Below, piece after piece: positions 7,136 to 46,780 of a stretch of DNA of 54,753 nucleotides; position 1 is the first letter of the stretch; each line of letters starts with the position of its first letter. The position numbers were made by a program, and so were the translations under genes. Below the pieces are notes generated by a model that was not told where the DNA came from, made no database searches, and was given only the letters and a program-made list of their open reading frames with translations. Origin of the DNA: Nemertoderma westbladi (lineage: Eukaryota; Animalia; Xenacoelomorpha); NCBI GenBank assembly GCA_032718475.1, contig JAUCBJ010001630.1:1-54753 (forward strand). Direction: 5' to 3'.

Positions 7136-7329
7136 AAAATGGGATTTAATTCTATAAAATATAAAAAATCACAGTTTCTAAAATATAAAAATACTCTAAA
7201 CAGTTAGTCTTTCTTGCGTGGACGGCGTTTACGCAGTATTTTAAAGCTAGCAAGAGTCCTTTTCTCTTTGGGGGGAGCCACTTTACTAGGAGGGCTATAA
7301 CTCCTGGGTGAAGGGTGCAATATGATTGC

Positions 7330-22624: not shown

Positions 22625-22880
22625 ATATATTATAATAGGGTTACCAGTATTTCCAATATTATAATAGGGTTACCAGTATTACCAATATTATAATAGGGTT
22701 ACCAGTATTACCAATATTATAATAGGGTTAACAGTATTACCAATATTATAATAGGGTTACCAGTATTACCAATATTATAATAGGGTTACCAGTATTAGCA
22801 ATATTATAATAGGGTTACCAGTATTTCCAATATTATAATAGGGTTACCAGTATTACCAATATTATAATAGTGTTACCAGT
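22625..22880 (+). repeat. 29-bp minisatellite (AATATTATAATAGGGTTACCAGTATTACC)n, ~9 units
   Basis: Period 29 read directly. Confidence 0.9.
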
Positions 22881-23416
22881 TCTGTAAGTGTTTGTGTAGC
22901 TGCTGATCTTCAAGCATTTCTCTGCGATCATCTGGACAATGACTTTTCTGGAGTGCTGAGTGTGTAAAGGTAAACTCTATGGTAATTGGAGAAGATGCAT
23001 GGCGCCGTGTATTTCAGTAGTTTCTGATTCTTTATTTTCCATGTATATTGATTGAATTCCATCGATTTTTGAGATTTTCAATGAATCTATGGATCTTTTG
23101 TTTTATAGTGTTTATCACAAGATCACTTTGATGGTTCAAAGATCCTGGGATATATAGTTAACATATTGCTATAGAGTTTTTCTGAAAACATTTCGGAATG
23201 ACGATGATGGTTCTGTGCTTCATTATCATAAAGAAAACTTTTTATAATAAGTGATTGCTTGTTTATAAATAAGAAACAAGCTGCAATATTGAAATATTTA
23301 CTGTACGGTAAATAAAGTATTCTTTATTTACTGTTCGTCCCGAGATCTATTATTTACCGACCGAGCGCAGCGAGGGTGGTAAATAAGTCGGATCGAGGGG
23401 CGAAAGGTACTAGTAC

Positions 23417-23790
23417 AGTAATAGGGTCTTGGCCGGCTCGGTGACAGTTAGACCTCACTGACACCCATTGGGTGTCATATGACACCCTATTATCACCCAT
23501 AGGGTGTCATTGGCGCCAGACTGTCTGGGTGACACCTCCTAATTAGGCTAATTAGACCATAATTGACAGTTGTCATCAATTAATTAGTACAATTAAACCC
23601 TAATAGGTGTCTTAAGACTCCTAATTAGGGTTTAATTGATTATCCTAATTAATCAGACTGATTAGCGCCTTGACACACAATGGGTTATAGTGTTGTCTAA
23701 CTGTCACCTAGAGGACCAAGAGGGTGTCATAAGTGACACCGCAGCTCTTTTATTTATTCATACCTATTTATTTGTATTTAATTTTAATTA
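23417..23790 (+). repeat. Maverick-like terminal block, copy 2 (AGTAATAGGG start)
   Basis: Direct repeat of 2229-2600. Confidence 0.5.
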
Positions 23791-24668
23791 CCTTTACACA
23801 CTCAGCACTCCAGAAAAGTCATTGTCCAGATGATCGCAGAGAAATGCTTGAAGATCAGCAGCTACACAAACACTTACAGAACTGGTGACACTATTATAAT
23901 ATTGGTAGTAGTAAGATGAACCCATCCTCGGCGACAGTTTGGTCCTACTTCGCACCTTGGGTGTTAAGTAGGTCATTAATTAATCAACCAATTAATTAAT
24001 TGGTCGATTAAACAATTAATTAATTGTTTAATCAATCGATTTGTATCAAATAATGTTGCCAAAGGCAATTTAATTTGATACAAATCAATCAGATAGGGAC
24101 GCGAGATGAATAAATTGTACTACAACAAACGAAATATACAATACAATAGGCACTGTGCAATACAATATACAGTACATTTGTATTATTTTTGTCATACAGT
24201 AGAAGGTAAAGATAGAATTAAATAAATAGACGCAATCGAGGCCCAAAACATAAATTACCCTCACACAAAAATAAAGTGGCCCAGTTTGGCCCTGAGTCAT
24301 CCCTCAATAATCTGCGGTTGTTGGGCTCTTATTAACCGTAGCATGACTAACCCAAACATCAATGCATGAATGGGGCCTGCGTGAATGGGGCCTGCCACAG
24401 AGTTTAAATTATTCAAACCTATAGCTTCGTTATTACATCAATTCGTCCGAGAAATTATAATAAACATCTGCTCTTGCAATAGATTGCATTCTTCTTTCAC
24501 AACTCCATTCTAACCTCCCTCTATAATAGCCCCTAGTCACCGCATTCCCATTCATTCTCTAATTTTTATTTTTAAAAGTTTTATTTATTTTCATAAAAGT
24601 TTTATTTATTTAAAATTTTGTAAAATCATTCAGCGAAAATTCATAATATCAATTGACATTGCTATATA

Positions 24669-25718
24669 ATGCATAGAGATGAAAGATGTTTGGTTTGTAA
24701 TAAAGAAATGAGACAAGATAATCTATCTCGTCATATGGAAAGACATAGAAAGGATAAACTAATGGATCCATTACCAAAGAAATTTAAAAAATCCGAAGAT
24801 GTTTTTAGTGAAGATGAAAAGAAAAAGAGAGTTGAGCGTGATATTTTAAAGATAAAACAGACAATGGAAAATAAATTTCATAAAGTTATGAATATTTTGA
24901 AAGGGATACAAAAACAGTTACCCCTAGAAAATGATGAGAATTTGAGTGAGGAAGATGAAGAAGAAGAGGACGATGAGATGGAGAATGAAAATAGTGAGGG
25001 TCAAGATGAAGTTGAAGAGAGTGAAGTTGGGAACGAAGAAAGTGAAGATCAGAAAGATGACGAAGAAAGTGAAGGTCAGGAAGAGGGTGAAGATAGCGAA
25101 GGTCAGGAAGAGAATGAAGAAAGTGAAGAACAGGAAGAGGATGAAGAAAGTGAAGAACAGGAAGAGGATGAAGAAAGTGAAGAACAGGAAGAGGATGAAG
25201 AAAGTGAAGAACAGGAAGAGGATGAAGAAAGCGAAGGTCAGAAAGAGGATGAAGAAAGTGAAGGTCATGAAGAGGACGAAGAAAGTGAAGAACAGGAAGA
25301 CGACGAAGAAAGTGAAGGTCAGGAAAGTGAAGAAGATGATGAAAATGATAATAATAAGGAAATATTGAGACAATTACTTGGAAATAAGAATAAATTGCGG
25401 AAAATTATTAAACATTTAGAAGAGAATGGTGAAAATAAAGAAGAGATATTGAGACAAATATTAGGAAACAAAAATCAAATGCGGAAATTTATTAAACAAA
25501 TGGAAGAAAATGAGGAAAATAGAGAAGAGATATTAAGACAGGTTCTGGGAAATAAAAGTAAATTACTGAAAATTAATGAACAATTGAATAAAATTAAGAA
25601 ACTGTTGGTTAATGAGGAAGATGAAATTAAAGAAAATCAACCAGCTTTTACTTATTTTCGAAGACCTATGACAACAAACTCTCGTACAGTATTTGCCCGC
25701 GCAGGAGGACACTATTGA
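24669..25718 (+). CDS. C2H2-zinc-finger / acidic-repeat protein, 349 aa, intact
   Basis: CLVCNKEMRQDNLSRHMERH, basic PKKFKK patch, long E/D/S tract, C-terminal helical ILRQxxGNK repeats. Confidence 0.8.
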   Translation: MHRDERCLVCNKEMRQDNLSRHMERHRKDKLMDPLPKKFKKSEDVFSEDEKKKRVERDILKIKQTMENKFHKVMNILKGIQKQLPLENDENLSEEDEEEEDDEMENENSEGQDEVEESEVGNEESEDQKDDEESEGQEEGEDSEGQEENEESEEQEEDEESEEQEEDEESEEQEEDEESEEQEEDEESEGQKEDEESEGHEEDEESEEQEDDEESEGQESEEDDENDNNKEILRQLLGNKNKLRKIIKHLEENGENKEEILRQILGNKNQMRKFIKQMEENEENREEILRQVLGNKSKLLKINEQLNKIKKLLVNEEDEIKENQPAFTYFRRPMTTNSRTVFARAGGHY

Positions 25719-26127
25719 CATTTGTTTGTTTGAGTTCCTTTCATAATAGTATTAAAACTATTTATCCATAACAATTATATTAGTATTAGGACTATTTATC
25801 CATAACATTTATATTAGTATTAGGATTATTTATCCTTAATTATTATATTAGTATTATAAATGTATTTGCCAACAATATTTATTACTATTAGGTCTATTTA
25901 TTCAAGAAATTATATGTTTTTTATAATATATTTTGGAAAATTAGTCGACTAAGTCATAATTTTTAAAACTTTAAATAAGGGTGGAGTTATTTTATAAAGT
26001 TAAGAAGAGTGAATCAATGGAGGCAACCTGAAGTCTCATCTCTTGCCCTTTACTCATAAGACCGCACGTTAACTCCCAAGGTTGCATACTATCACTATAG
26101 CTGGGAGAGTCAAAGCTAGTGTACAGG

Positions 26128-26972
26128 AGTGAGGGAAGTGAGGCAGTGAGGAAGTGAGGGAAGTGAGGGAATGAGGGAGGCAGTGAGGCATAGTGAGGCA
26201 GTGAGGCGTAGTGAGGGAAGTGAGGGAAGTGAGGCAGTGAGGCATAGTGAGGCATAGTGAGGCATAGTGAGGCAGTGAGGCATAGTGAGGCATAGTGAGG
26301 CATAGTGAGGGAAGTGAGGGAAGTGAGGCATAGTGAGGCAGTGAGGCATAGTGAGGCAGTGAGGCATAGTGAGGCATAGTGAGGCATAGTGAGGCATAGT
26401 GAGGCATAGTGAGGCATAGTGAGGCAGTGAGGCAGTGAGGCAGTGAGGCATAGTGAGGCATAGTGAGGCATAGTGAGGCAGTGAGGCAGTGAGGCATAGT
26501 GAGGCATAGCGAGGCATATTGAGGCATAGTGAGGCATAGTGAGGCATAGTGAGGCATAGTGAGGCATAGTGAGGCATAGTGAGGCATAGTGAGGCATAGT
26601 GAGGCATAGTGAGGCAGTGAGGCAGTGAGGCATAGTGAGGCATAGTGAGGCATAGTGAGGCATAGTGAGGCAGTGAGGCAGTGAGGCATAGTGAGGCATA
26701 GTGAGGCATATTGAGGCATAGTGAGGCATAGTGAGGCAGTGAGGCAGTGAGGCATAGTGAGGCATAGCGAGGCATAGTGAGGCATAGTGAGGCATAGTGA
26801 GGCATAGTGAGGCATAGTGAGGCATAGTGAGGCATAGTGAGGCATAGTGAGGCATAGTGAGGCATAGTGAGGCATAGTGAGGCATAGTGAGGCATAGTGA
26901 GGCATAGTGAGGCATAGTGAGGCATAGTGAGGCAGTGAGGCATAGTGAGGCATAGTGAGGCATAGTGAGGCA
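26128..26972 (+). repeat. 10-bp satellite (AGTGAGGCAT)n with 8-bp AGTGAGGC and 9-bp AGTGAGGGA variants
   Basis: Direct reading of the array. Confidence 0.95.
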
Positions 26973-27035
26973 GAGCCTCACTATCTGATAGTGATGATCT
27001 CATCATCACTATCACTCAGCTTCTCTATCTCTATT

Positions 27036-27884
27036 CTATATCTTTTCTTCCATTTGTTTAATAAATTTCCGCATTTGATTTTTGTTTCCTAATATTTGTC
27101 TCAATATCTCTTCTTTATTTTCACCATTCTCTTCTAAATGTTTAATAATTTTCCGCAATTTATTCTTATTTCCAAGTAATTGTCTCAATATTTCCTTATT
27201 ATTATCATTTTCATCATCTTCTTCACTTTCCTGACCTTCACTTTCTTCGTCGTCTTCCTGTTCTTCACTTTCTTCGTCCTCTTCATGACCTTCACTTTCT
27301 TCATCCTCTTTCTGACCTTCGCTTTCTTCATCCTCTTCCTGTTCTTCACTTTCTTCATCCTCTTCCTGTTCTTCACTTTCTTCATCCTCTTCCTGTTCTT
27401 CACTTTCTTCATCCTCTTCCTGTTCTTCACTTTCTTCATTCTCTTCCTGACCTTCGCTATCTTCACCCTCTTCCTGACCTTCACTTTCTTCGTCATCTTT
27501 CTGATCTTCACTTTCTTCGTTCCCAACTTCACTCTCTTCAACTTCATCTTGACCCTCACTATTTTCATTCTCCATCTCATCGTCCTCTTCTTCTTCATCT
27601 TCCTCACTCAAATTCTCATCATTTTCTAGGGGTAACTGTTTTTGTATCCCTTTCAAAATATTCATAACTTTATGAAATTTATTTTCCATTGTCTGTTTTA
27701 TCTTTAAAATATCACGCTCAACTCTCTTTTTCTTTTCATCTTCACTAAAAACATCTTCGGATTTTTTAAATTTCTTTGGTAATGGATCCATTAGTTTATC
27801 CTTTCTATGTCTTTCCATATGACGAGATAGATTATCTTGTCTCATTTCTTTATTACAAACCAAACATCTTTCATCTCTATGCAT
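27036..27884 (-). pseudogene. Inverted, C-terminally truncated copy of the ZnF/acidic ORF
   Basis: Translation identical to 24669-25718 for ~280 aa, then ends at the arm junction. Confidence 0.85.
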
Positions 27885-28645
27885 TATATAGCAATGTCAA
27901 TTGATATTATGAATTTTCGCTGAATGATTTTACAAAATTTTAAATAAATAAAACTTTTATGAAAATAAATAAAACTTTTAAAAATAAAAATTAGAGAATG
28001 AATGGGAATGCGGTGACTAGGGGCTATTATAGAGGGAGGTTAGAATGGAGTTGTGAAAGAAGAATGCAATCTATTGCAAGAGCAGATGTTTATTATAATT
28101 TCTCGGACGAATTGATGTAATAGCGAGGCTGTGGGTTTGAATAATTTAAGCTCTATCGCAGGCCCCATTCACGCAGGCCCCATTCACGCATTGATGTTTG
28201 GGTTAGTCATGCTACGGTTAATAAGAGCCCGAGCAGCCGCAGATTATTGAGGGATGACTCGGGGCTCAAACTGGGCCACTTTATTTTTGGGTGAGGGTAA
28301 TTTATGTTTTGGGCCCCGCTCGTGTCTTTATATTTAATTCTACCTTTACCTACTGTATGGCAAAAATAATACAAATGTATTGTATATTATATTGCACAGT
28401 GCCTATTGTGTTGTATATTTCATTTGTTGTAGTACAATTTATTCATCTCGCGTCCCTATCTGATTGATTTGTATCAAATTAAATTGCCTTTGGCAACATT
28501 ATTTGATACAAATCGATTGATTAAACAATTAATTAATTGTTTAATCGACCAATTAATTAATTGGTTGATTAATTAATGACCTACTTAACACCCAAGGTGC
28601 GAAGTAGGACCAAACTGTCGCCGAGGATGGGTTCATCTTACTACT

Positions 28646-29520
28646 ATTGGTAATAGGCCTACTGGTAACACTATTAAAATATTGGTAATACCTGTAACCC
28701 TATTATAATATTGGGAATACTGGTAACCCTATTATAATATTGGTAATACTGGTAACACTATAATAATATTGGTAATACTGGTTACCCTATTATAATATTG
28801 GTAATACTGTTAACCCTATTATAATATTGGTAAAACTGGTAACCCTATTATAATATTGGTAATACTGGTAACCCTATTATAATATTGGAAATACTGGTAA
28901 CCCTATTATAATATTGGTAATACTGGTAACACTATTATAATATTGGTAATACTGGTAACACTATTATAATATTGGTAATACTGGTAACCCTATTATAATA
29001 TTGGTAATACTGGTAACCCTATTATAATATTGGTAATACTGGTAACCCTATTATAATATTGGTAATACTGGTAACCCTATTATAATATTGGAAATACTGG
29101 TAACCCTATTATAATATTGTTAATACCGGTAACCCTATTATAATATTGGTAATACTGGTAACCCTATTATAATATTGGTAATACTGGTAACACTATTATA
29201 ACAATGGTTATACAAGTAACCCTATTATAATATTGGTAATACTGGTAACACTATTATAACAATGGTAATACTGGTAACCCTATTATAATATTGTTAATAC
29301 TGGTAACCCTATTATAATATTGGTAATACTGGTAACCCTATTATAATATTGGTAATACTGGTAACACTATTATAACAATGGTAATACTGGTAACCCTATT
29401 ATAATATTGGTAATACTGGTAACCCTATTATGATATTGGTAATACTGATAACCCTATTATAATATTGGAAATACTGGTAACCCTATTATAATATAGGTAA
29501 TACTGGTAACCCTATTATAA
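28646..29520 (-). repeat. 29-bp minisatellite, ~30 units, inverted relative to 22625-22880
   Basis: GGTAATACTGGTAACCCTATTATAATATT units. Confidence 0.9.
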
Positions 29521-29579: not shown

Positions 29580-31270
29580 TGTGGCAGCCCCACATACATT
29601 ATACAGTCTCAAAACTTTGTTATTATGGTTGCCTAGCAACCCTAGAGATGAAGTCTAGGCCGACCTACAGAATTGTACCACTGTACTGCAGTATGCCCTC
29701 AGCAATCACTCGAACTTGAGTTTTCATACGTTTTCGTTTCGTGGCTGGACGCCATCCCCACATTGGTGACCCAGCGTCTCAAGACGAACTCTTGAGACCG
29801 CGACTCGCAACACGATCCTGCAATCGAACAGGCTGACTGGAACAGCAACCGAAACTGTGTTGACGACAATCAGACAATGGCCGAAGCAACCGCCAACGCC
29901 GTTTCTATTAAACTGCCTCCGTTCTGGACCACCCAACCCGAGGTGTGGTTCGCCCAGGCGGAGGTGCAGTTCCACATTCGGAGCATCACCAAGGACGCTA
30001 CAAAATATTATTACGTGGTGGGGGCCCTCGAACAGGAGACAGCCGCTCGCCTCCTAAAATTCATCCGGAACCCTCCCACTACTGATAAGTACCTCAAACT
30101 CAAGCGCCAACTTCTCAAGGCCTTCGGGCTCTCCCGACGCGAGCGCGCAGCCCGACTCTGGGACCTCGACGGCCTCGGTGACCGGCGCCCCTCGCAACTC
30201 CTCGGAGAAATGTAGGCGCTCCTCGGCGACGACAACGCGGGACTCATCTTCGAGGAGGCTTTCCTCCGGCAGATGCCCACCGCAATCCACCTCCAACTCG
30301 CGGAAGAGGACTTCCACGACCTCAACAGGATTGCGGACCGGGCCGACGCGCTGTGGGAGGCCTCCCGGCAGACCTCACTCGCTGCCCACACCATCAGGAA
30401 ACCGACACCGGTCCCGCCGCAGCGAACCAGCAAGAACTCCTTGTCGGCGTCGACTCCCGCCCCGCGGGCCCCGAACTCGAACCTGGACTGGTGCTATTAT
30501 CACCAGACGTTCGGCCCCACAGCCAGGAAGTCCCGCCCGCCCTGCAGTTACCAGGGAAACGCCCCGGCCGGCCGTTTGTAGCAGCTACAACGGCCGGCCA
30601 CACCGACCTGCTGCTGTTTGCCTGGGACCGCGTTTCCGGGAAACGCATCTTGGTCGATACCGGGGCGGAGGTAAGCGTTATTCCCGCGACGACTCGCGAG
30701 GAACGTTCGGGACAGAGCGGGCCACCCCTCCTCGCCGCCAACAAAACGTACATTCGAACGTACGGCGACCACTCCGTCAAACTCGACTTCCACTCTCGCC
30801 GGTTCCAGTGGAAGTTTATCGCGGCCGACGTCGCCCAGCCTCTCCTCGGAGCCGACTTCCTCCAAGCAAACAACATCAGAACAACAGAGGCCGCCGTCTG
30901 GTCGACGCCGAGACGTTGACCTCGATCCCGTGTGGGCGGACTACGGGCCACGCCCCCCACCTCGGTTCTGTCACCGCCTCGGACGACGAGTTCGCTCGGC
31001 TCCTCGCCGAGTTCCCCGATATTACGATCCCTCGGTTCTCCGACCCCACCGCGAAACACGGGTTTGAACATTACATCCCCACCGAGGGATCCCCGGTCTA
31101 CTCCCGCGCCCGTCGTCTGCCTCCAGACAATCTCGAGATTGCGCGGGACGAGTTCCGGAAGATGGAGGAGATGGGGATCATCCGCTGGTCCAACAGTCCC
31201 TGGGCGTTACCCCTCCACATGGCCCCTAAACCCTCGGGTGGATGGCGGCCGTGTGGCGACAACCGACGCC
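29580..31270 (+). mobile_element. 5' fragment of a Gypsy LTR retrotransposon (LTR ~29580-29762, PBS TGGTGACCC at 29764, gag, protease, start of RT)
   Basis: TGTGG...CCACA LTR; gag KLPPFW...WFAQAE with premature TAG at ~30213 and WCYYH...PPC end; LVDTGAEVS protease; SPWALPLHMAPKPSGGWRPCGD RT start; truncated. Confidence 0.9.
30554..30560 (+). other. -1 ribosomal frameshift slippery site G GGA AAC at the gag/pol overlap
   Basis: XXXYYYZ heptamer just before the gag stop (30581), followed by GC-rich stem-forming sequence; the protease ORF is in the -1 frame. Confidence 0.7.
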
Positions 31271-31274
31271 ACGA

Positions 31275-31916
31275 CTCCGGACCCAAGTCTCTGATCGGAT
31301 GAGCATAAGCTCAAAGGATGGTATGCTTGAGCATGTGGACGACTTCTGTTACCTGGGATCATGGATCCGGAAGTCAGGTGAGGACCTTCGAATACGTAAG
31401 GGAAAGGCATGGGCAGCCTTGAATAGGCTTTCCAGGATTTGGAAGTCACCGAGAATTAATCAGAAACTTAAGGTCCGATTATTTAGAGCAGCACTAGTTC
31501 CAGTACTCCTCTACGGGAGTCCATGCTGGGCTCTAACTGCTGAGGACACCAAATCTCTGGATGGCACATTCACAAGAATGCTACGCCGGGTTCATAGTGT
31601 CAAGTACAATGCACACATCTCCAACCAGACACTATATAACATTGGAGGTGTCTCATTGGTTCCCCCAAGCTTGACACTAGAACAAAATCGCCTCCGCTTT
31701 GCAGGACATTGCTTTCACCGTGAGGACCAGCCAGTGCATAATCTTGTACTTTGGCAGCCTCATGGAGCGAATAAGCATGGTGGACAGCCCATGACTTTCT
31801 TGAGACGCATCTTAAAGGACACTGGCCTTAAAGATGCGGATGATCTAGCAAATGTCATGGGTGATAGGGAGTTGTGGCGGTGCAATTTTGTTGACAAGCC
31901 GGCACAGCATTCTTAA
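31275..31916 (+). mobile_element. 3' fragment of an RTE-like non-LTR retrotransposon ORF2
   Basis: LEHVDDFCYLGS...RIRKGKAW...IWKS...KVRLFRA...VLLYGS..W.L...RMLRR post-RT motifs. Confidence 0.85.
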
Positions 31917-31939
31917 AAATGCAGCTGCAATGCAGCATG

Positions 31940-32420
31940 CCGATCCTAGTAGTAGTAATTTCTTAAAAGCATTAATTAAAAATAATATTCTAGATACCTC
32001 TAATTACCCCAAGGATCACCCTCTCTACAGCGATAAAAATAAATCCAGACTCTATTACTGTAAAGATGAACTAGCCTCACGTGAAATTAAACAAGCAGTA
32101 TTTTCACGTCCAAAGAAGTTATATTCAATTTTGGAATGGAATAACAAAAATATTCATAGAGCGAAAGGAATAACAAGAGCTATCGTGGATAAAAATATTT
32201 GCCACGAAGATTATTTAAGAGCATATAAGGATAACGAAGAAATTTCCAAGGAAACGCATCAATTTCAGAGTCAATTACACAAAGTGTACACTGTAGCACG
32301 AGATAAGTTTGCTCTCAGCGCATTTGACGATAAACTTTATTGGGTTAATATAAATCATTCACTTCCCTGGGGTCACTATCAAACAAAGGTTGTAAAACCA
32401 ATTAAAAAAAAAATATACCT
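31940..32420 (+). pseudogene. polB: C-terminal remnant of protein-primed family B DNA polymerase
   Basis: DTSNYPKDHPLYS..NK....KDE...RPK..YS...RAKG...LSAFDDK...PWGHY motifs; N-terminal part missing. Confidence 0.85.
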
Positions 32421-32439
32421 ATTTATCGGGAACCAAACA

Positions 32440-32994
32440 ATGAACTATCAGATAGTTAATAAGAATGTAAGTTGCCAGCAAGTGTCAGCGATTAATTTGA
32501 AAGAATTAAAAAATCAATTATCTGGTAAACATATACTCAAACCAAATCAGTTTATATATAAGATATTTGGTGCCACATTATTAATATTTAAAAATGGTCG
32601 TATTACATTATTAGGTAGTAAGTATAATTTCCAAAAAGTAAAAAAGCATATATTTGATAAAACAAGTATTAATTTGATTTTAAAATCTGTTAATTTATGT
32701 ACTTATATTTTTAGTATTAACTCTGTAGTCTATAGGTTATTGATAAACAATACCGGGTTTTATGTTGTCTTTGATAATGTACAACTTCAAGTTATATATG
32801 AACCTGAAATTTTTAATAATTGCAAAATAAGAATAAATAATACCGTAGTCATTTGCTGCTTTCATACCGGTAAATGTACTTTAATGTGTTCACCTAGCAA
32901 ATTTCACATTTATTACCCTATATTTAGTAAACTGGTTAATTATTTATTAATGTTTGGTGTTGTGACTTTAGGTGTAGAATATATTGGTAATTAG
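32440..32994 (+). CDS. TATA-box-binding-protein (TBP)-like protein, 184 aa
   Basis: Two pseudo-repeats: IVN...S...INLKEL...ATLLIFKNGRITLLGSK and YEPEIF...RI...V.CCFHTGKCTL, matching TBP TALIFSSGKMVCTGAK and YEPELF...LLIFVSGKVVL. Confidence 0.8.
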   Translation: MNYQIVNKNVSCQQVSAINLKELKNQLSGKHILKPNQFIYKIFGATLLIFKNGRITLLGSKYNFQKVKKHIFDKTSINLILKSVNLCTYIFSINSVVYRLLINNTGFYVVFDNVQLQVIYEPEIFNNCKIRINNTVVICCFHTGKCTLMCSPSKFHIYYPIFSKLVNYLLMFGVVTLGVEYIGN

Positions 32995-33132
32995 AAGGTG
33001 AAAATTAAGTATTATTATTTTTCAATCGATCTATCGGTAGTTAGGGAAAACTAACCTCGTTTGAATAAGCATGACTCTCACAGGCTGACTGCGTGCCTAG
33101 CTGACAGTAGCTGCGAGGCTGACTGTGTGACT

Positions 33133-34019
33133 AGCTGCGAGGTTGACCACATCCCAGCAGCGTGGCTGACTGCGCACACATCTGATTGTAACTGGTTCAC
33201 GATATTGTATACATTGGCTTAGTTTGTTACTGCAGGTACTGTTACATTAATACTGTAGTACCGGTACAGCAGTACAATGCTAATAGAAGGAAATCAGTAT
33301 GCTCTACAACAACAGTGAAAGTACTGCAGTACTGTATTGTTTGGGTAGGTGATCTAATCCCTGTATGTGAGACCCATGCGTGCAATCCAGGTCATGACTG
33401 CAGTATGCTAATCAAGGTTCGGGTAGACTGCAGTATCCTTATAGGTGAAAAAAAACAAATACTATTGCATCAGATTACTGCTGTACTGATACCTGTAGGC
33501 CGCGACTACAGTGTTGGAAGAGTAAAACACTGTCGGTACTGATAAAGTGGGTGACAGTTGTGGATAGGAGCTGCGAGGTTGACTGCATCCCAGCAGCGTG
33601 GCTGACTGCGTACACATCTGATTGTAACTGGCTCACGATATTGTATACATTGGCTTAGTTTGTTACTGCAGGTACTGTTACATTAATACTGTAGTATCGG
33701 TACTGCAGTACAATGCTAATAGAAGGAAATCAGTATGCTCTATCTGACTATACTGTTACAACAACAGTGAAAGTATGGCAGTACTGTATTGTTTGGCTAG
33801 GTGATCTAATCCCTACATGTGAGACCCATGCGTGCAATCCAGGTCATGACTGCAGTATGCTAATCAAAGTTCGGGTAGACTGCAGTATCCTTATAGGTGA
33901 AAAAAACAAATACTATTGCATCAGATTACTGCTGTACTGATACCGGTAGACCACGACTACAGTGTTGGAAGAGTAAAACACTACCGGTACTGATAAAGTG
34001 GATGACAGTTGTGGATAGG
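33133..34019. repeat. Two ~440-bp tandem units in the Maverick intergenic region
   Basis: AGCTGCGAGGTTGAC...GTTGTGGATAGG starting at 33133 and 33569. Confidence 0.9.
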
Positions 34020-34396: not shown

Positions 34397-34969
34397 CTAC
34401 TGTACATCATTCACCACAGTTATTTCTTTCTGTTTATCACCTGTCTCAGTTAATCGCTTCGTTACATACCCTCCAATCCTTTTCGCTGAGCAGTAATTCA
34501 AGCAGCTATCACCATCTTTGTGAAAACTACATTTATCTTCTACAGTAGTTAATTTATCGTGGAAGGGGCATGGAGTTAAATAATTGTAATATAGTCGAAA
34601 TATTCCCAATTTGTTCATCGATTTTGGAGCGTAAACATCAAGTTGGGTATTTAATATTGCGGCTTTCATCAACCCGAATACATATATATTATATTTATTT
34701 TTTAATTGTCTCTTCATGTACTTTTTAAAGTCATCTTGCGAAATGTCACCGTAATCCCAAGGTAAATGCGATGTAATATCATGTAAATTGTTTACGTGGG
34801 CTTCATCTAATGCTGATAAGTTAATATCAGGAGGTCCTTTAATTAAAAACGTCTTTATATTAGTTTTACTGTATTTAGAATCGAATATAGCAAATTCTTT
34901 AAATACTACCGGATATTCCTTATTGTCTATCTTATAATATTGAAAATCAACAAAAATAATATTATCCAT
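34397..34969 (-). CDS. DnaQ/DEDD-fold nuclease-like accessory protein with a Cys/His-rich C-terminus
   Basis: IIFVDFQ...KEFAI...HLPWDYG...IYVFG..K...CPFH...CSFH...C pattern. Confidence 0.6.
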   Translation of the reverse strand: MDNIIFVDFQYYKIDNKEYPVVFKEFAIFDSKYSKTNIKTFLIKGPPDINLSALDEAHVNNLHDITSHLPWDYGDISQDDFKKYMKRQLKNKYNIYVFGLMKAAILNTQLDVYAPKSMNKLGIFRLYYNYLTPCPFHDKLTTVEDKCSFHKDGDSCLNYCSAKRIGGYVTKRLTETGDKQKEITVVNDVQ

Positions 34970-35013
34970 TTTATCGAATAATATATTTAGATAAACAAAA
35001 GTTAAATGATTAA

Positions 35014-35486
35014 TTACAACGCCTGTTGGTTTATTTTATAATAATTAACAAGCCATTTATATAATATTATTTCATTTATTTCCACATTATTTGTAAACGC
35101 TCTCATTGGATAGTTTGTGTGAATTCGATTTACCAAGTAATAAAGACAGTATAACCCGCATGTGGTCTTTCTAGGGTCTTGAAATTGTTTGCGAGTAGTA
35201 CACCACCTTGCTGAATTTTTCTCAAGCCATTTTTCAATACATCTGTTTGGATATTTTGGGCCAAACAAATTAAATAATTCAGCTTCATTATCTCGTATAT
35301 ATATAGCTATCCAATGAACCCCTGGTAGATGCTCTTTATCGGTATTTACTATTACTATATTATATTATTATTTACTATATAGTCTCTTCACTTATTATTA
35401 TCTAATTTAGGTAATTTATTAGATGGAAACGTGCCCAAATAGTGACCACCCACTGGAAACATATCAAGGTCCTCTGTAGATAACAT
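35014..35486 (-). pseudogene. Adenain-like cysteine protease, disrupted (duplicate copy)
   Basis: LGTFPSN...NTD..HLPGVHWIAI...FNLFG...Q...TTCGLYC; internal TGA and frameshift near 35360-35390. Confidence 0.85.
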
Positions 35487-35488
35487 AC

Positions 35489-36270
35489 TTAATCGATATG
35501 TATTTCTTTCCTGCTATTTAAACTTAATGATTGATCATAAATATTAAAAACGATTACATTTATGGTCTCAACCAACGGTTCAGCAAATCTAAATTTTAAT
35601 TGTCCATTAGTATATATCGATGGCTGAGGATCTCTAACATAGCCGTCGGCAGTTAGGTCCCAGGATATGAGTGGGCAATTACCTAAGTAGGTTTCATGGT
35701 CTATATTATTACCTCCATAACCGTTAATATATGTATTAATGTTCTTCATTAATTGTGTATACTCAAAAATGTATGTTCCATCTGTAAAATTAGGCTCGTA
35801 TATTACACCACCTACTGGAAGACCATCTACAATCAGTTCTGCGCATCTAAGGTTAAAATGTTCAAATTTCAAGGGATTACTAGTTAATTCTCCCGAATAT
35901 GCATCATTTATTATAAAACCGATAATAACTAATTTGGGTTTTTTACCATCAAATATGTTTGTTTGGGTGTAATTTGTGGTTTGAGCGGGAATAGTAAATG
36001 TAGTAACTTTTTTTTTTGAAATTGATATTCAATATCGTAACTCTCTAAACCTTTTAGGTGACTGCTTTCTATTACTGGATTAACCTCCATTCTAGGGATT
36101 AGGATCTTTACATCATCTAATTCTAGCCGAAGATTTGTCACAGCGTTTGCGTTTGGAGTGATTTTAAAAATAAACGAATTTGATACTTTTCTAAAATGCA
36201 TTCTTAAATCATACCCGGGTTGTATTATTTTACTTTCAGTATCAAAATCAATCGTCAATCCACTTACAAA
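35489..36270 (-). pseudogene. Duplicated 3' half of the major capsid gene, frameshifted
   Basis: Near-identical to 36746-37531; 1-nt shorter T run and a 3-nt deletion. Confidence 0.9.
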
Positions 36271-36743
36271 TTACAACGCCTGTTGGTTTATTTTATAATA
36301 ATTAACAAGCCATTTATATAATATTATTTCATTTATTTCCACATTATTTGTAAACGCTCTCATTGGATAGTTTGTGTGAATTCGATTTACCAAGTAATAA
36401 AGACAGTATAACCCGCATGTGGTCTTTCTAGGGTCTTGAAATTGTTTGCGAGTAGTACACCACCTTGCTGAATTTTTCTCAAGCCATTTTTCAATACATC
36501 TGTTTGGATATTTTGGGCCAAACAAATTAAATAATTCAGCTTCATTATCTCGTATATATATAGCTATCCAATGAACCCCTGGTAGATGCTCTTTATCGGT
36601 ATTTACTATTACTATATTATATTATTATTTACTATATAGTCTCTTCACTTATTATTATCTAATTTAGGTAATTTATTAGATGGAAATGTGCCCAAATAGT
36701 GACCACCCACTGGAAACATATCAAGGTCCTCTGTAGATAACAT
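36271..36743 (-). pseudogene. Adenain-like cysteine protease, disrupted
   Basis: Same motifs and lesions as 35014-35486; ATG lies 2 nt after the capsid stop. Confidence 0.85.
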
Positions 36744-36745
36744 AC

Positions 36746-38008
36746 TTAATCGATATGTATTTCTTTCCTGCTATTTAAACTTAATGATTGATCATAAATA
36801 TTAAAAACGATTACATTTATGGTCTCAACCAACGGTTCGGCAAATCTAAATTTTAATTGTCCATTAGTATATATCGATGGCTGAGGATCTCTAACATAGC
36901 CGTCGGCAGTTAGGTCCCAGGATATGAGTGGGCAATTACCTAAGTAGGTTTCATGGTCTATATTATTACCTCCATAACCGTTAATGGTGTATGTATTAAT
37001 GTTCTTCATTAATTGTGTATACTCAAAAATGTATGTTCCATCTGTAAAATTAGGCTCGTATATTACACCACCTACTGGAAGACCATCTACAATCAGTTCT
37101 GCGCATCTAAGGTTAAAATGTTCAAATTTCAAGGGATTACTAGTTAATTCTCCCGAATATGCATCATTTATTATAAAACCGATAATAACTAATTTGGGTT
37201 TTTTACCATCAAATATGTTTGTTTGGGTGTAATTTGTGGTTTGAGCGGGAATAGTAAATGTAGTAACTTTTTTTTTTTGAAATTGATATTCAATATCGTA
37301 ACTCTCTAAACCTTTTAGGTGACTGCTTTCTATTACTGGATTAACCTCCATTCTAGGGATTAGGATCTTTACATCATCTAATTCTAGCCGAAGATTTGTC
37401 ACAGCGTTTGCGTTTGGAGTGATTTTAAAATTAAACGAATTTGATACTTTTCTAAAATGCATTCTTAAATCATACCCGGGTTGTATTATTTTACTTTCAG
37501 TATCAAAATCAATCGTCAATCCACTTACAAATTGCATTTGTTTACTAAAGGCATCGCCAATAGGATGCGCGCCGGGATTAATTTCATTTCCGTGTTCGGA
37601 TAAAGGCTGATGAAAGCCGCCTGCCCCCAGTAGCCCATTTTTTGTTTCGTATGTTATAAATAGTAAATTGGATAAGTACGACATGTAGAAATAATCGTTA
37701 TTGCTATTTTCAACCTGCTTCTCATTAAGGTCTATTTTAATATCACTCCACATAGTCCCAGAAGGGTAATTCAACATATAAATATGGGAGTTTTCAAGTC
37801 GTCTATCCCACCGTACAGTACATTTTGTAATTAATAACGCATCTTGCAGTTTCGTATAGAATTCATTGGATCTTGGTACAAGAAACGTGACTTCCCTAGA
37901 TTCGCTTCTGAGATTAGATACCGGGTAAATTGTTTCATAATGCTTTGCTTTAAATTCAGTCTGTATTGGCTGTGTAGAAAATAAATCTAATTCCTTAATA
38001 ATTGACAT
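36746..38008 (-). CDS. Double-jelly-roll major capsid protein, 420 aa, intact
   Basis: ELDLFS..PIQT...YETIYPVSNL N-terminus; PKLVIIGF...AYSG....NP..F.HFNL; DLTAD...G.L..RFAEPL C-terminus typical of Maverick MCP. Confidence 0.9.
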   Translation of the reverse strand: MSIIKELDLFSTQPIQTEFKAKHYETIYPVSNLRSESREVTFLVPRSNEFYTKLQDALLITKCTVRWDRRLENSHIYMLNYPSGTMWSDIKIDLNEKQVENSNNDYFYMSYLSNLLFITYETKNGLLGAGGFHQPLSEHGNEINPGAHPIGDAFSKQMQFVSGLTIDFDTESKIIQPGYDLRMHFRKVSNSFNFKITPNANAVTNLRLELDDVKILIPRMEVNPVIESSHLKGLESYDIEYQFQKKKVTTFTIPAQTTNYTQTNIFDGKKPKLVIIGFIINDAYSGELTSNPLKFEHFNLRCAELIVDGLPVGGVIYEPNFTDGTYIFEYTQLMKNINTYTINGYGGNNIDHETYLGNCPLISWDLTADGYVRDPQPSIYTNGQLKFRFAEPLVETINVIVFNIYDQSLSLNSRKEIHID

Positions 38009-38049: not shown

Positions 38050-38574
38050 TTATATTTTTCTATTTTTACTACGACGATCATGTATGTTCATAGACATTGG
38101 TTTGGTTGGTCGCTTTAAATCTCTATAAACTTTTTCTACAACCGATCTTGTTGATGGTTTCATTTTATTTAATGCTTTATTAATAACCGTATTAGCCTGC
38201 TGATGTAAGACCCGCTTACCTTTTGGTATTACATGTTGTCTCATAAATTTTGTGGTAAATGGTAAAGCTTTTTGTAAAACTTTTTTTGCTAATGGCTTTC
38301 CAAATTTTTTCAATGTAGATAAAGCGTCTGTAAATATACCTTCCCCGTGTTGATTTGCCCGCATACCTCTACGATAACGTTGAAATCGACGTTGTTTTAA
38401 ATTTGGACCAAATGCACCAATTTGTTGACCGTAAGGGTCAATATATGAACCACCTCGAAAAACAGGAACTTGCGTCGAGCCTCTCGTACTTCTACCACCT
38501 TTAAAAACAGCAAGATTAGAGTCTGCACCACCATATTGAGGTTTACTGTATCTTTGAAATAAATCGGAATCCAT
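38050..38574 (-). CDS. Basic core/membrane-lytic virion protein with adenain-type cleavage motifs
   Basis: QYGGA, FKGG, FRGGS, QHGEGIF..AL..L..FGKP, Lys/Arg-rich; sits between penton and MCP. Confidence 0.65.
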   Translation of the reverse strand: MDSDLFQRYSKPQYGGADSNLAVFKGGRSTRGSTQVPVFRGGSYIDPYGQQIGAFGPNLKQRRFQRYRRGMRANQHGEGIFTDALSTLKKFGKPLAKKVLQKALPFTTKFMRQHVIPKGKRVLHQQANTVINKALNKMKPSTRSVVEKVYRDLKRPTKPMSMNIHDRRSKNRKI

Positions 38575-38575
38575 T

Positions 38576-39421
38576 TTAATTTATTTTTTTAAAGTGTAAG
38601 GTAATAGAAGTTGTGCCGTATTCAAAATTCAAATCTTTTCCTTCTTTGTCTGTTATTTCAATATGAATGTATGTTATCTTATATGATTTTTTTACAGGGA
38701 TATAATGAATTGTATCCTTGGCAAATTCTTTATTTATTACACTACCATATTTCACGTCATCAGGTATCGCCACGCGACGAAGTAAAGCTAAACCAAAATC
38801 ATTAATATATTCATTTTCAATTATATTAGTAGTCACGTACATGTTTGACTTAGGTTCTGGAATAGAATTGGGTGGTTGAGGACATAAAAATACCATCTGG
38901 TAAGCTTTTTCTTCATTTCCGATAACCTTTATTAAATAACCCTTTATGTTATTTTTCGTCTTCAAAATAATTTTAAAATTTGGATTTAAATTTGCACCGA
39001 GATTATTTTCAGTAATTCCAAAATAATAGGCTAATTGTTGACCTATAAATAACTCTCGTACAGTTTTCCCTAAAATAAATTGCAACCTATTTTGCTGAGT
39101 ATTTTCAACTATTTGTAATTTATCTTTCAACGCCCCAGTGTTAAAATAATCTATAATGTCATTGATACTGTAGAACAAGCAGGATGGAAGTGTATCCTCA
39201 AAATTTTTTTTCCCTTTTTTTAATAAAATAACATTCTCTACATTGTTATACATGGACGGTAACGTGGCTAAGTAAAATATACTTTTTATACCTACCACCC
39301 AGTTTTCGTTTGGATTTATAGGTAAGGCACCATGGAAATTGATCTGATAATTACTACCAGTATTACGGGGAAAATCGATTGGACACGAGTTACTTGGTAG
39401 CCTAACATAGAATTCATCCAT
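38576..39421 (-). CDS. Minor capsid protein (penton) 1, intact
   Basis: FYVRLPSNS....FP.NT.SNY...W.VGI; YVTTNII....LLRRV; YIPV...I.IEITD..G..L.F..G...ITLHFKK. Confidence 0.9.
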   Translation of the reverse strand: MDEFYVRLPSNSCPIDFPRNTGSNYQINFHGALPINPNENWVVGIKSIFYLATLPSMYNNVENVILLKKGKKNFEDTLPSCLFYSINDIIDYFNTGALKDKLQIVENTQQNRLQFILGKTVRELFIGQQLAYYFGITENNLGANLNPNFKIILKTKNNIKGYLIKVIGNEEKAYQMVFLCPQPPNSIPEPKSNMYVTTNIIENEYINDFGLALLRRVAIPDDVKYGSVINKEFAKDTIHYIPVKKSYKITYIHIEITDKEGKDLNFEYGTTSITLHFKKIN

Positions 39422-40285
39422 CTCCACCGCGTATTAACTTAAGTGTTATAACAGTGCGACCACCGTTGAAATTAATTAATTCACCTTGTCCATCACGTAA
39501 AGTAATTAAGATTGTTTTTAGTTTTTTATTCAACAATGGGTAATATTGCAAATGCTCTCGTATTCGTGATTAATATATTTTCGATTTAATTGTGTTAAAG
39601 GACAGGTTCTTAAGAGCGGAGCTAAAGCGTCACCAACAAATGAGCTCTTAATAATATCTGTATATATGAAGATTGTATCTTTATTACGAGTAATATTCGT
39701 AGGATCTGGAAAATCTAAAATCCCAATTTCCGAAATTTTTGGTCCACTATAATTTAAAATTAATATCGGCTGTTCTATATTGCTTAATTCATCCACTGTA
39801 GTGGTACTGTATATATCCCAATTCGGAATACCTGGATGATTCTGATCAAATAACTGTTTTAAGCCTAGAATTTGTATTAAATCACCGCGTAGACTTAATT
39901 GTATTTTTTTCAACTTTTTAGGAAATTTAAATTAAATTCTAGAATTATTTGTATTAAAAATGAATTCGAAATCACTATATTTCGCTTCAGAATTAAACAG
40001 TTTATTTATATCATCAATAATGACTTGAATAGAGCTATGCATACCAGGAAATAAACTGTATAATTTGGCATCTTTTGCATCTACCCCGATTGACAGTGAG
40101 ATTTGAGTTTGCAAAGTAATATTTCTGTATGTTGCTTGATATTGAATCTTGGCAAGTCCAATTTTAACGTTTGAACCAATATATAATTCTTCGGCTAAAT
40201 CAACAGTAAACTCGCTAGGGTTATTATTGGGGTATGTGTTGAATGAGCTATCTGAAACTAGAGTGATATATGTATCTACAGCCAT
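39414..40285 (-). pseudogene. Minor capsid protein (penton) 2, two frameshifts
   Basis: YITLVSDSS...YPNNNPSEF.V.L; IFIYTDII....VGD..APLLR; ITLRDGQGELINFNGGRTVITL; its stop overlaps the penton 1 start. Confidence 0.85.
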
Positions 40286-42636: not shown

Positions 42637-43764
42637 TTATTCACGCAATGAATTAATATACAGTATAAACCTAAACTTTTGAATATGCTGTACCCACGAC
42701 TGTTTTTTGGATCCAATGAATCGGACTAAATATTCTTTTTTCCCATTGCGCACACGTTCTTTAAGTTTGCCAATATTTTTATCAATCGGAAGATAAATAT
42801 TACTACTCGGGTGGACCTTTTGGAGTTCGTATGAATAAAATGAACCATTTATTATAGCACCAGCGCTGTCCTTAATATTGAACATTACCGCTGGTACTCT
42901 ATCCAATCTGACCCAATGAATAATAAATAATTCACGTGTCCATTGTTCTCGATAGCCTTTAGCAAAAGCAGTACGCGCGATAGATAAACGTACTGTATCT
43001 CCAACTTGAAATTTTATTTTCTTGTGATTAATCTGTCTATATTTCCCATATAATCTATTAATTAATTCAGTTTCATTAAATTTATTAACTTCAATGGGAG
43101 TCATTTGTATAGTCCTATGAAATGACCTATTATAAGCAAAAATAAGCTTCGGTAAAATTTTTATCCAAACATTATTTCCCCGTTGCGTGAAAATTTTGAA
43201 CATCTTTGTTTTTAATGTTCTATTGAATCTCTCGACAATAGCCGCCTTATTCACAGAGTACATTACGTAATAACGTACACCAATAGTATCTAAATATTTT
43301 CTTACAGATTTATTTAGAAACTCAGACCCTTGATCAGTCGCGATTCTGTTTGGTTTACCTTTCTGGAATATTTTTTGCAATATACTAATAATTTCAATAC
43401 CTGTTTTTGTCTTCATACCATAGGCAAAAGCAAGCCGGCTAAAGGCATCAATACATGTTAATATATAGTTATAATTATTATTTTGTGATTTATATTGCTG
43501 CATATCCACCAGATCTATCATATATATATCTTTTAACCCTCCCGTAAATATTTTAGATGTTGGATAATGATGTCTACGTGGTGCGTGAAGGGAGTATGTC
43601 TTTTGCCTGCTCAACCATTTCTGAGCTTGAGATGGTTTGATGTTTGCGGCTTTTGCTAATTTTGCGATACTTGCAAAACCCGCAGGCGATGAAGGATCTA
43701 AATAAATTCTTAACAGTTTTTTGTCTAAGCTTCGGCTTAAAATCGGTTTCATCTTGCGTGGCAT
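42637..43764 (-). CDS. int: Maverick retroviral-like (rve) integrase with C-terminal chromodomain-like segment, intact
   Basis: YLDPSSPAGF, DLVDM / TDQGSEF / ERFNRTLK DDE triad, KFQVGDTVR...FAKGY...WT.E.F, YLVRFIG...SWV. Confidence 0.92.
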   Translation of the reverse strand: MPRKMKPILSRSLDKKLLRIYLDPSSPAGFASIAKLAKAANIKPSQAQKWLSRQKTYSLHAPRRHHYPTSKIFTGGLKDIYMIDLVDMQQYKSQNNNYNYILTCIDAFSRLAFAYGMKTKTGIEIISILQKIFQKGKPNRIATDQGSEFLNKSVRKYLDTIGVRYYVMYSVNKAAIVERFNRTLKTKMFKIFTQRGNNVWIKILPKLIFAYNRSFHRTIQMTPIEVNKFNETELINRLYGKYRQINHKKIKFQVGDTVRLSIARTAFAKGYREQWTRELFIIHWVRLDRVPAVMFNIKDSAGAIINGSFYSYELQKVHPSSNIYLPIDKNIGKLKERVRNGKKEYLVRFIGSKKQSWVQHIQKFRFILYINSLRE

Positions 43765-44402: not shown

Positions 44403-45397
44403 TTAATTATTATTATTATTATTATTATTATTTTCGCTACGTTTATAGTCAATGTAATTTTTAATATAACAATTATGATTACGAAATATATCCGATCTAA
44501 ATCTTAAATGTTCGGGTGTTTCCTGTCGTAAATCAATTAAGAAATACGAAAATGGTTTAATAGTCGCATCTTGATAGGAATCTATTAAAAATTTGGTCTG
44601 CCCTGGTAACATCTGCTTCGCGAAATTTAAAACCGATAAACTGTCTCGTGGATTTTTCATTAATACTAAGGTATTATTTGATTGATCTTGTTATTGATAT
44701 TGTTATCTTGTTATTATCTATTAATTGATCTTGTGCGGTTATGCTTCCCACCGTAAAACATGTTTTGCGTTATGAAACAAATAAATATATTGGAATGGTG
44801 AGCAACCTTAGTAAACAATACAGTTAAGGCTGTACTAGACTCAGTTTCTGTTAATAAATCTAAATTATTAAATTATAAAAATTAATAAATCTCGACTATT
44901 CACTAAACTATCTATATTTTCAGGCAAACCTTTGTAAAGGTGAGTAATACCAGGAATAGTCGGGGGATTGCTCCCGTAACAATACAATACTCGTAGTAGA
45001 GGGTCGTTGAAGCAGCTATTCTTGTGTTTAATTAAATTACCAACAAATGTAGACTTTCCGGAACCAGACGGGCCAGAAATTATCATACTCGTTCCCATTT
45101 GAAAGTTTAAATTATATGGACCTGAATTAAAGTAAAAAAAAAAGCAAACAGTCGGCCGAAGCCAGAGGCGACCCGAAGGCTCCTCTTTCGATAGCTGCTA
45201 CCCGAGGGTAGGGGTGGGCGCTACTCCTATCCCAAGATTTGCTCCCAGTTATTTAACTGGTACTCATTTTATCGACCCCAGTGGATGAAAGGCTGAGTGG
45301 ACCCTGGCGGGGCTGAACCTACAACCAATAGATTGCAGGCCCGGCTCAACCAACTGAGCTACCCCGCCTTTAATTAATGTAAATTAAAGTCAGCCAT
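44403..45397 (-). pseudogene. A32/FtsK-like genome-packaging ATPase, disrupted
   Basis: Walker A GPSGSGKS, FTKVAHH...ITQNMF, KNPRD, PFSYFLIDL; frameshifts plus SINE insertion; reconstructed start MADFNSGPYNLNFQMG. Confidence 0.9.
45134..45381 (-). mobile_element. tRNA-derived SINE with Deu/Nin-like core and RTE-like tail, 9-bp TSD
   Basis: GGCGGGGTAGCTCAGTTGG A-box, GGTTCAGCCCC B-box, CTCAGCCTTTCATCC..GGGGTCGATAAAATGAGTACC core, T-rich tail; AATTAAAGT repeated at 45125-45133 and 45382-45390. Confidence 0.8.
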
Positions 45398-45584: not shown

Positions 45585-46286
45585 TTATTTGAAAAGATTG
45601 TGTAATCGTATACCTGCAATCAACAGACATTGTTTTCGATTTAAATAATGTCCATACCAAGTGAGATAGTGGTGACATCGTATAAATTCGTTATACTTCT
45701 TAGTTTGACATTTACGTTCTATACCACGTCTGTAGCATTTAGTACTGGAAATATGACTTAGAGTATGCTCCGTCAAAGTGCGAATTACTCTCATACACAA
45801 ATCATTGCAAAGAATACCTTCATCAAGTTTCAAATAATACTTTTTTGGTTTTATACCTCTTGAAGATGATTCATCTTTATATGTCTTAAAGTAAATATCA
45901 AAACTACGTAAATTCTTATTTAATTTTACTGTGATATTTTTATGTTCTTCATCAAACAACCAAGGTACCATAAAGCCGCCTTTTTTCACTATATATCGAT
46001 AAAAAATATTCTGTGATATTGTAAATAACTCGTTAGGTTCGTTACTTTTTCCTGAAATGTAAATAGAATTCCGCAGCTCTTTCCAATAATATGGATTATA
46101 TAACTTGTTTACTCTGCAAAGTGTCTGTACTCTACAAATTGGACAAATTTTAGTACAATCATTAATTTCAACATGTTGATCAATACATGTCACGCAAGTT
46201 CCATGTTTATTAACACATATGTAACAATCAAGATGTTTTAAATTAGAATAACAAATACTACAATTTGTGTTTATTAATATATCCAT
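45585..46286 (-). CDS. RING-finger (C3HC4-like) accessory protein, putative E3 ligase
   Basis: CSIC-x11-C-x3-H-x2-C-x2-C-x13-CPICR at the N-terminus. Confidence 0.75.
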   Translation of the reverse strand: MDILINTNCSICYSNLKHLDCYICVNKHGTCVTCIDQHVEINDCTKICPICRVQTLCRVNKLYNPYYWKELRNSIYISGKSNEPNELFTISQNIFYRYIVKKGGFMVPWLFDEEHKNITVKLNKNLRSFDIYFKTYKDESSSRGIKPKKYYLKLDEGILCNDLCMRVIRTLTEHTLSHISSTKCYRRGIERKCQTKKYNEFIRCHHYLTWYGHYLNRKQCLLIAGIRLHNLFK

Positions 46287-46353
46287 TTTTCTTAAATAAC
46301 CAAACCAAAATCGTTAAAATGTTGATAAAATATTTATAATATAGCTGAAAGAG

Positions 46354-46780
46354 TCAAGAATCATCTTCATTGTCATCGGTTTCATCAGTGGTTACAAGGG
46401 TTTCTTTCGAAATAATAACAATAAACAAAGCCATAATTTCATAAGCATTTTTACGATCTAATTTGATCTCAAACTTTTCACATTTATTGCTCGCTATATT
46501 ACCACTATATTGAGTAATAACAATAAAGTTATCTGACATTGATAAAATTGTGAATTTATCTAAATCATCTTCTTCTTTGTAATCTAAAAGGTAATTAGTA
46601 GAATCTACCTCACCGAAAATATCAATAGATTGCAGTTCTTCTCTTGCTTGTTCAGAAATGTCTACTTTAAAATTAGGTTTTGAAGGACAATAAATAGTGT
46701 TACCAATAACAATACAAGTAAGATTGTCTACAGTATTAAATGTATGTCTTATTACAGGCGCAGGTGTATCAGAAGACATT
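46354..46780 (-). CDS. Hypothetical acidic Maverick accessory protein
   Basis: Open frame from MSSDTPAP; co-oriented with the viral cluster; no motif recognised. Confidence 0.5.

Follow-up and report, generated by a model that had tools for sequence, protein, structure and literature searches.

The open reading frame at positions 32440–32994, on the forward strand of the window (the whole 54,753-nucleotide stretch that was analysed), is, judged from its sequence, the TBP gene of a Maverick. The predicted product is a two-lobed TBP homologue of 184 amino acids that retains F38, F50, F125 and F141 as well as E121 and E123, and it is novel only as a variant of the viral TBP class.

Identification of the TBP gene

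The frame runs through 184 codons without a stop; at a GC content of 25%, an open frame as long as this would arise by chance with a probability of around 2e-8. The motifs LIFKNG, YEPEIF and CCFHTG fall at residues 48–53, 120–125 and 139–144, respectively. A first-pass annotation of this DNA had described a 184-aa ORF with two TBP-like half-repeats, which was confirmed by translation and by the Pfam TBP family (PF00352), matched in two stretches with E = 3e-10 and 40.2 bits, the curated cut-off being 22.9 bits. A profile of 76 TBPs, from which the query was left out, matched the ORF over profile positions 6–171 of 188 (E = 9e-10), and the ATG of the ORF coincides with the start of the TBP profile. 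TBP clusters also ranked first in the ESM Atlas (0.95), with a recognition score under the threshold of the tool, and this result is taken as supporting only.

A BLASTP comparison of the two halves against each other gave no alignment (E = 2.0), and a PDB sequence search returned nothing significant, the best TBP having E = 0.06. PrfA was among the weak PDB matches, which were taken as chance. A protein homologue search of a 5.8-billion set (lengths 101–322) yielded no close relative among 45 candidates, and no relatives were found in viral contigs (0/31 and 0/41 stretches). Among 1.84 billion representatives there was a single match (P0002; 31%, E = 5e-4), located on a 1-kb contig without context, and a two-sequence profile search retrieved 725 generic TBPs.

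Predicted fold and conserved residues

AlphaFold gave no usable fold without an alignment (pLDDT 36). When supplied with a 77-row TBP alignment it gave a model (pLDDT 76) in which the strand and helix order of TBP is present twice. The best Foldseek match of this model was the archaeal TBP 1mp9 (E = 6e-10), and the rows listed to rank 44 were all TBP-containing entries. VIA-align placed the model on 1mp9 with Z = 12.9 and an rmsd of 4.3 over 170 residues; TBPs were the best structural matches (Z 10–13), and the first entry outside the TBP family had Z = 6.2. A TBP saddle fold, taken as five strands and two helices per lobe, is thereby predicted, as the first-pass annotation had suggested checking. 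Because the input alignment consisted of TBPs, the model indicates that the ORF is compatible with the two-lobed TBP saddle and is not independent proof of it.

The alignment with the 76 TBPs contains seven invariant columns (F50, G53, G59, E123, F125, F141 and G144) and six that are nearly invariant (F38, L48, Y120, E121, P122 and K145). The columns of F38, F50, F125 and F141 are those that we take to be the DNA-intercalating Phe positions of TBP. Since the last three of these columns are invariant and that of F38 is nearly so, all four positions are retained, where the earlier annotation had counted at least three.

Both glutamates of the C-lobe, E121 and E123, are likewise retained, and the single variant at E121 among the listed copy differences is still acidic. 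In the part of PMC7221094 that treats these surfaces, the two C-lobe glutamates of TBP are the contact for TFIIB, TFB and Brf, and the first of them is conserved in around 40% of viral TBPs, which mostly bring their own TFIIB. The same passages describe this glutamate as contacted by Brf1 and Brf2, both of which also need the basic patch of the N-lobe; that patch serves TFIIA, TAF1, Mot1/BTAF1 and Brf, and viral N-lobes are described as being without a regulator patch (PMC7221094). The N-lobe of the Maverick ORF has a changed loop 2 and a deletion of five residues after strand 3, and its helix-2 motif is not recognisable, although the register may be off by one or two residues and helix 2 still contains lysines. 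Conserved residues near the DNA face have also changed, with Asn-Asn in place of the Pro-Gly after F125, Cys in place of the Gly of the second strand-5 motif, and Asn-Gln in place of the N-lobe basic residues before F38. With these substitutions, the protein may bind DNA weakly or in an altered way.

Relationship to cellular and viral TBPs

The ORF is 20–27% identical to each of the 76 aligned TBPs; for comparison, slime-mould and rotifer TBP are 66% identical. The earlier judgement that the gene is too diverged for a recent host retrocopy is therefore upheld. A quick-method tree covering 66 of 121 proteins, for which the careful search was incomplete and in which no sequence was labelled TRF2 or TRF3, placed the ORF outside the eukaryotic TBP clade, although its placement is unsure and its branch is the longest (∼10 changes per column); no donor for the gene is nameable from this tree. 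The ORF has neither the high identity nor the grouping within the clade that would mark a eukaryotic cellular TBP orthologue. Its likeness to cellular TBPs (PF00352; PDB 1mp9, 1ytb, 1cdw) lies in the predicted two-lobed saddle, the four Phe, the YEPExF stirrup and the strand-5 Gly of lobe 1. It differs from them, however, in having no N-terminal extension, a deletion in an N-lobe loop, an altered regulator surface and a replacement of the Pro-Gly after the third Phe, besides its low identity.

The TBP-like proteins of Nucleocytoviricota, as covered in part of PMC7221094 and among BFVD matches, are similarly virus-encoded, with the DNA-contact Phe and without the eukaryotic N-lobe signature. 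Their TBP is mostly paired with an own TFIIB and their stirrup glutamates have diverged (about 40% conserved), whereas the Maverick protein retains both glutamates and the surviving part of its element shows no TFIIB or RNA polymerase gene. According to the sections of PMC12529657 on the TBP mimic of beta- and gammaherpesviruses, KSHV ORF24 brings host Pol II to late promoters of the virus. ORF24 also has a viral TBP fold, and we regard it as the likely functional parallel of the Maverick protein. Yet ORF24 is described in PMC12529657 as having extra domains, as pre-assembling with Pol II and viral partners, and as predicted not to bind TFIIB, whilst the Maverick protein is a bare 184-aa core with a TFIIB stirrup. 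Neither the large multidomain layout nor the TATT promoters of the herpesvirus late mimics (ORF24/UL87) are found here, TATT-type words not being enriched. As far as can be read from the residues, what sets this protein apart among viral TBPs is that its TFIIB stirrup is intact and that it belongs to a small element whose surviving part shows no RNA polymerase.

The novelty of a Maverick with its own TBP was overstated at first pass, as the legend to Figure 5 of Starrett et al. (2021; PMC8502044) already uses TBP as a gene name for MELD viruses whose PolB is adintovirus-like. As in the present case, a polinton-type virus of medium size has a TBP-like gene. The portion of the text on MELD viruses gives the label only, leaving its bearer, residues, selection and function untreated, and the part of the supplement that was searched holds no match for TBP or TATA. 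Section 3.4 of the same paper, as far as its text was available, deals mostly with non-animal datasets, whereas the element here is an integrase-bearing animal Maverick. The word “polinton” does not occur in the main text of PMC7221094 on viral TBPs, in the version available, and sporadic TBP genes are reported in part of PMC10675990 for mirusvirus-like algal elements. The literature searched, which lay largely outside subscription journals, contained no paper characterising a Maverick TBP and no established account of how animal Mavericks switch on their capsid genes.

A TBP was found at E < 0.09 in none of 81 distant Maverick loci, seven of which reach the pPolB end. These loci, mostly partial and with capsid identities of 22–29%, are the best-ranking 80 of 443 found in an incomplete scan of metagenomes, plus one viral contig. 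Mavericks in general therefore manage without a TBP gene, and the gene is lineage-specific Maverick cargo. Other transcription-related cargo was seen in one distant Maverick (L074:5023-5700), which encodes a PC4 (transcriptional coactivator p15) domain in the interval from pPolB to the ATPase (E = 1e-9).

The Maverick element and its surroundings

The genes expected of a Maverick/Polinton are present around the ORF, in the form of a pPolB remnant, an RVE integrase, an ATPase, an adenovirus-type protease and capsid genes. Directly upstream, positions 31957–32439 (+) hold the C-terminal pPolB remnant and the spacer to the TBP start, the rest of pPolB being absent from the window. The stretch 31975–32379 aligned with the C-terminal ∼135 residues of pPolB proteins from Mavericks (34–37% identity, E ∼1e-14), and one of these proteins (L077) matches Pfam DNA_pol_B_2 at 3e-18. 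The first-pass statement that the ORF comes right after pPolB stands in so far as the two adjoin, but what adjoins it is only a C-terminal remnant, in frame with the ORF. At ∼31956 pPolB is cut off by the tail of a high-copy LINE-like element, whose 3′ end occupies 31242–31956 (+; DUF6451, E = 7e-4) with an (AGT)n tail at 31948–31956, and many contigs begin or end at this LINE-like element. It is preceded by a Gypsy-like gag/protease fragment at about 29796–31200 (DUF7041 and aspartyl protease).

Convergent with pPolB and the TBP gene is a block, on the reverse strand, of ATPase, integrase, minor capsids, basic protein, major capsid and protease. At the head of this block are two accessory ORFs (45585–46779, −), one of 233 aa with a RING-like Cys/His start and one of 141 aa that is acidic, which gave zf-RING_2 at E = 0.04 at best and have homologues in 0/81 loci. 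The packaging ATPase (44463–45098, −) is in pieces, recognised by P-loop matches and by three tblastn segments to the ATPase of L001, which has Pox_A32 and IVa2 matches. The retroviral-type integrase (42637–43764, −) is an open frame of 375 aa (rve, E = 1.1e-10) with homologues in 38/81 loci. Putative minor capsid gene 1 (39530–40285, −) is interrupted by a stop, and putative minor capsid gene 2 (38576–39421, −), named from its position, is an open frame of 281 aa with homologues in 42/81 related loci. The basic 174-aa ORF at 38050–38574 (−) matches no family at E ≤ 0.01; its position and composition make it likely to be a virion core protein. The major capsid protein (36746–38008, −) is an open frame of 420 aa with 52 homologues at E ≤ 1e-5, two of which are named capsid protein by UniRef, and the relatives have the same gene order.

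The adenovirus-type cysteine protease (36271–36743, −; Peptidase_C5, E = 4e-6) is split across frames, and a second copy of it at ∼35014–35486 lies inside a tandem duplication of 1268 bp, 99.3% identical. This duplication (35012–37536) takes in the protease together with the 3′ portion of the capsid gene, and is either very recent or an assembly artefact. The block ends with a 190-aa ORF (34397–34969, −), convergent with the TBP gene, for which the Atlas gave unnamed arthropod clusters (0.96) and, weakly and as a lead only, Maelstrom (0.88); a nuclease-fold protein linked to piRNA defence is possible. Between the TBP gene and the capsid block is a non-coding tandem duplication of 452 bases (33133–34019, 92%), and a GC-richer stretch with a tRNA-like head (45130–45370), resembling a SINE insertion, is found between the RING-like ORF and the ATPase.

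The first-pass annotation had contrasted an intact ORF with broken core genes. Four genes are indeed broken (pPolB, ATPase, protease and one minor capsid), but three core frames (major capsid, integrase and the second minor capsid) are open too. Since the capsid and integrase genes are open as well, the intactness of a 555-base gene says little. The Maverick copy in the window is a dead relic. No inverted-repeat pair flanks it within the window, and its termini have probably been lost, as both ends abut retroelements. A Pfam scan of the ORFs of the element found no TFIIB and no polymerase subunit; the stretch upstream of pPolB, which is missing from the window, might possibly have encoded TFIIB.

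Other repeats make up part of the surroundings. BEL/Pao retrotransposon ORFs (Peptidase_A17) are present at 11499–17795 and 49993–53547, the second abutting the right side of the Maverick, and their flanks are alike (48959–49801 versus 10802–11640, 92%; 47655–48747 versus 7364–8451, 88%). A large nested inverted repeat at 22627–29520 has arms of 1203 bases with 99% complementarity, each bordered on its outer side by 29-base tandem arrays, and a central 10-base satellite of ∼89 copies. It also carries an acidic-repeat ORF with a weak C2H2 finger (24669–25718), which is mirrored in the other arm and has a related ORF at 4137–4982.

Other copies, selection and the pPolB junction

Contigs from four of seven public runs were mapped on the region, with runs X1, X3 and X4 belonging to organism A and X5, possibly an RNA run, to organism B. 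Contig depth, which is not the same as copy number, was 3,204 in X1 and 2,245–11,383 in X3 inside the TBP gene, and 10–55 at the LINE junctions. These depths point to a multicopy Maverick family, likely numbering about a hundred copies or more. The summed depth of the Maverick relative to the adjoining LINE (31780–33120), an unreliable measure, was ∼10-fold lower in X4 than in X1 and X3, which may reflect copy-number differences or free viral DNA.

Contigs joining the pPolB end to the TBP gene were found in X1 and X4 of organism A and in X5 of organism B. A second subfamily, with 46 differences in 293 letters (about 84% alike), another spacer and another gene start, is represented by such a joining contig in both X4 and X5. 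The ORF is thus present in other copies, beside pPolB in two subfamilies, which was one of the checks set out at first pass. A further check, of the dN/dS kind, gave a strong silent excess. The differences listed (40 of 141 rows united with 40 of 76) include 35 in the ORF, of which 24 are at third positions, 21 are silent, 14 are replacing and none is a stop. The silent share of 21/35 compares with 19–27% expected (p = 1e-7 to 3e-5 across nulls), and pN/pS is about 0.16, a value from counts against one copy with two subfamilies mixed, and not a phylogenetic dN/dS. In the pPolB remnant, 9 of the 12 listed differences are silent. The silent excess in the ORF shows that the TBP gene has been kept by purifying selection across copies. 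We propose that this signal dates from a time when the family was active, or comes from copies that are active elsewhere. At 32975–32983, close to the 3′ end of the gene, the window copy is nine bases longer than the dominant X1/X3 copies, with the frame kept.

In the window copy, the pPolB remnant and the ORF make up one frame of 380 aa (31852–32994). In all three of the junction-crossing contigs listed for the window subfamily, the junction differs in length from that of the window copy by a number of bases not divisible by three, and the same applies to the joint of the second subfamily in two of four runs. Given these differing junction frames, the in-frame join is most likely a private accident of the window copy.

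Promoters

An unbiased scan of 13 upstream regions with 12,492 patterns yielded none that survives correction (best p = 7e-5). The word TATAA occurs within 110 bases upstream of 9/13 gene starts, compared with 26% of random windows (composition-shuffle p = 0.04), at positions scattered from −29 to −109. Seven TATA-type patterns were tried post hoc, and shuffle p < 0.05 was obtained only for TATAA, TATAAA and TATAA[AGC], the last of these, at p = 0.0035, having been picked after looking. TATT[AT]A lies upstream of 4/13 genes against a background of 38%, which is no excess. The promoters of this Maverick family therefore show no private box and, with TATAA only weakly enriched, at most a canonical-type word. 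Host TBP could itself recognise a canonical TATA word, so that such promoters need not require a TBP gene of the element.

Possible roles of the Maverick TBP

The reading that we favour, with modest confidence, is that the TBP of this family would bind TATA-type promoters, recruit host TFIIB and RNA polymerase II, and so drive the genes of the element. It builds on the TBP sequence over both lobes, the retention of the Phe and glutamate residues, the linkage to pPolB and the silent excess, and from these we infer binding, partners and timing. The four Phe would wedge into the minor groove and bend the DNA, and E121 and E123 would dock TFIIB, presumably that of the host, as neither a TFIIB nor an RNA polymerase gene is seen in what survives of the element. 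With its altered N-lobe, the protein would escape control by TFIIA, TAF1 (TFIID) and BTAF1/Mot1. Being co-oriented with the polymerase gene, the TBP gene would be expressed early, and its product would then drive the convergent block of capsid, integrase and ATPase genes, with its TATAA words upstream of 9/13 genes.

It is rather unlikely that the protein is instead a DNA-bending helper, and not a transcription factor, acting at A/T-rich element ends in protein-primed replication or packaging. Host NFI and Oct-1 play such a role in adenovirus replication. In both subfamilies the gene immediately follows pPolB and has the same orientation, which is consistent with this role, as are the lack of a private promoter motif and the occurrence of TBP-like sheets in replication initiators (RepDE, Z about 6), which may be only a common arrangement. 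Pure bending would, however, have no need of the TFIIB-contact glutamates, which are kept or acidic, and the best structural matches are TBPs, at Z 10–13.

A decoy or dominant-negative TBP, sitting on host TATA boxes or sequestering TFIIB or Brf and thereby dampening host transcription or defence genes, is an unlikely role. The kept DNA face and TFIIB stirrup, together with a changed N-lobe partner surface, form the layout expected of a competitor. Nevertheless, an integrated and vertically passed element without a polymerase among its scanned ORFs relies on host Pol II, so that a general block of transcription would harm the Maverick itself, and there was no sign of a specific host target. 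Steering of Pol III to an element-encoded small RNA is very unlikely; Brf1 and Brf2 do contact the same glutamate, but both need the N-lobe basic patch, according to the part of PMC7221094 cited above, and this is not clearly recognisable in the ORF.

That the true product is a pPolB–TBP fusion protein is hard to credit, as the single open frame seen in the window is broken by the junction lengths of the listed contigs (3/3 for the window subfamily, two of four runs for the second) and the ORF starts with an ATG of its own at the beginning of the TBP profile. Equally improbable, and largely refuted, is the reading of the gene as a retrocopy captured from the host or a passenger of no use to the element. 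This would suit an intronless gene absent from 81 distant loci; against it stand the pN/pS of about 0.16, the lack of stops in the 35 differences listed, identities of 20–27% to cellular TBPs and retention beside pPolB in two subfamilies about 84% alike.

Implications

The single window is of limited value, since the copy is dead and the gene class has already been labelled in print. A wider proposal, possible though leaning towards doubtful, is that some animal Mavericks have a one-gene switch, in which a bare viral TBP uses host TFIIB and Pol II and escapes TFIID, TFIIA and BTAF1. If true, this would add a third viral strategy to the TBP–TFIIB pair of NCLDV and the ORF24 complex of herpesviruses, and it could allow capsid expression in cells with little host TBP or with paralogues in its place, for example in the germline. 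The protein would also offer a natural minimal TBP for asking which surfaces Pol II initiation needs. For the Mavericks themselves, a small selected TBP whose TFIIB stirrup is intact and whose regulator face has changed is a candidate for the activation of capsid genes, which supports the view that these elements had a real virus-like expression programme.
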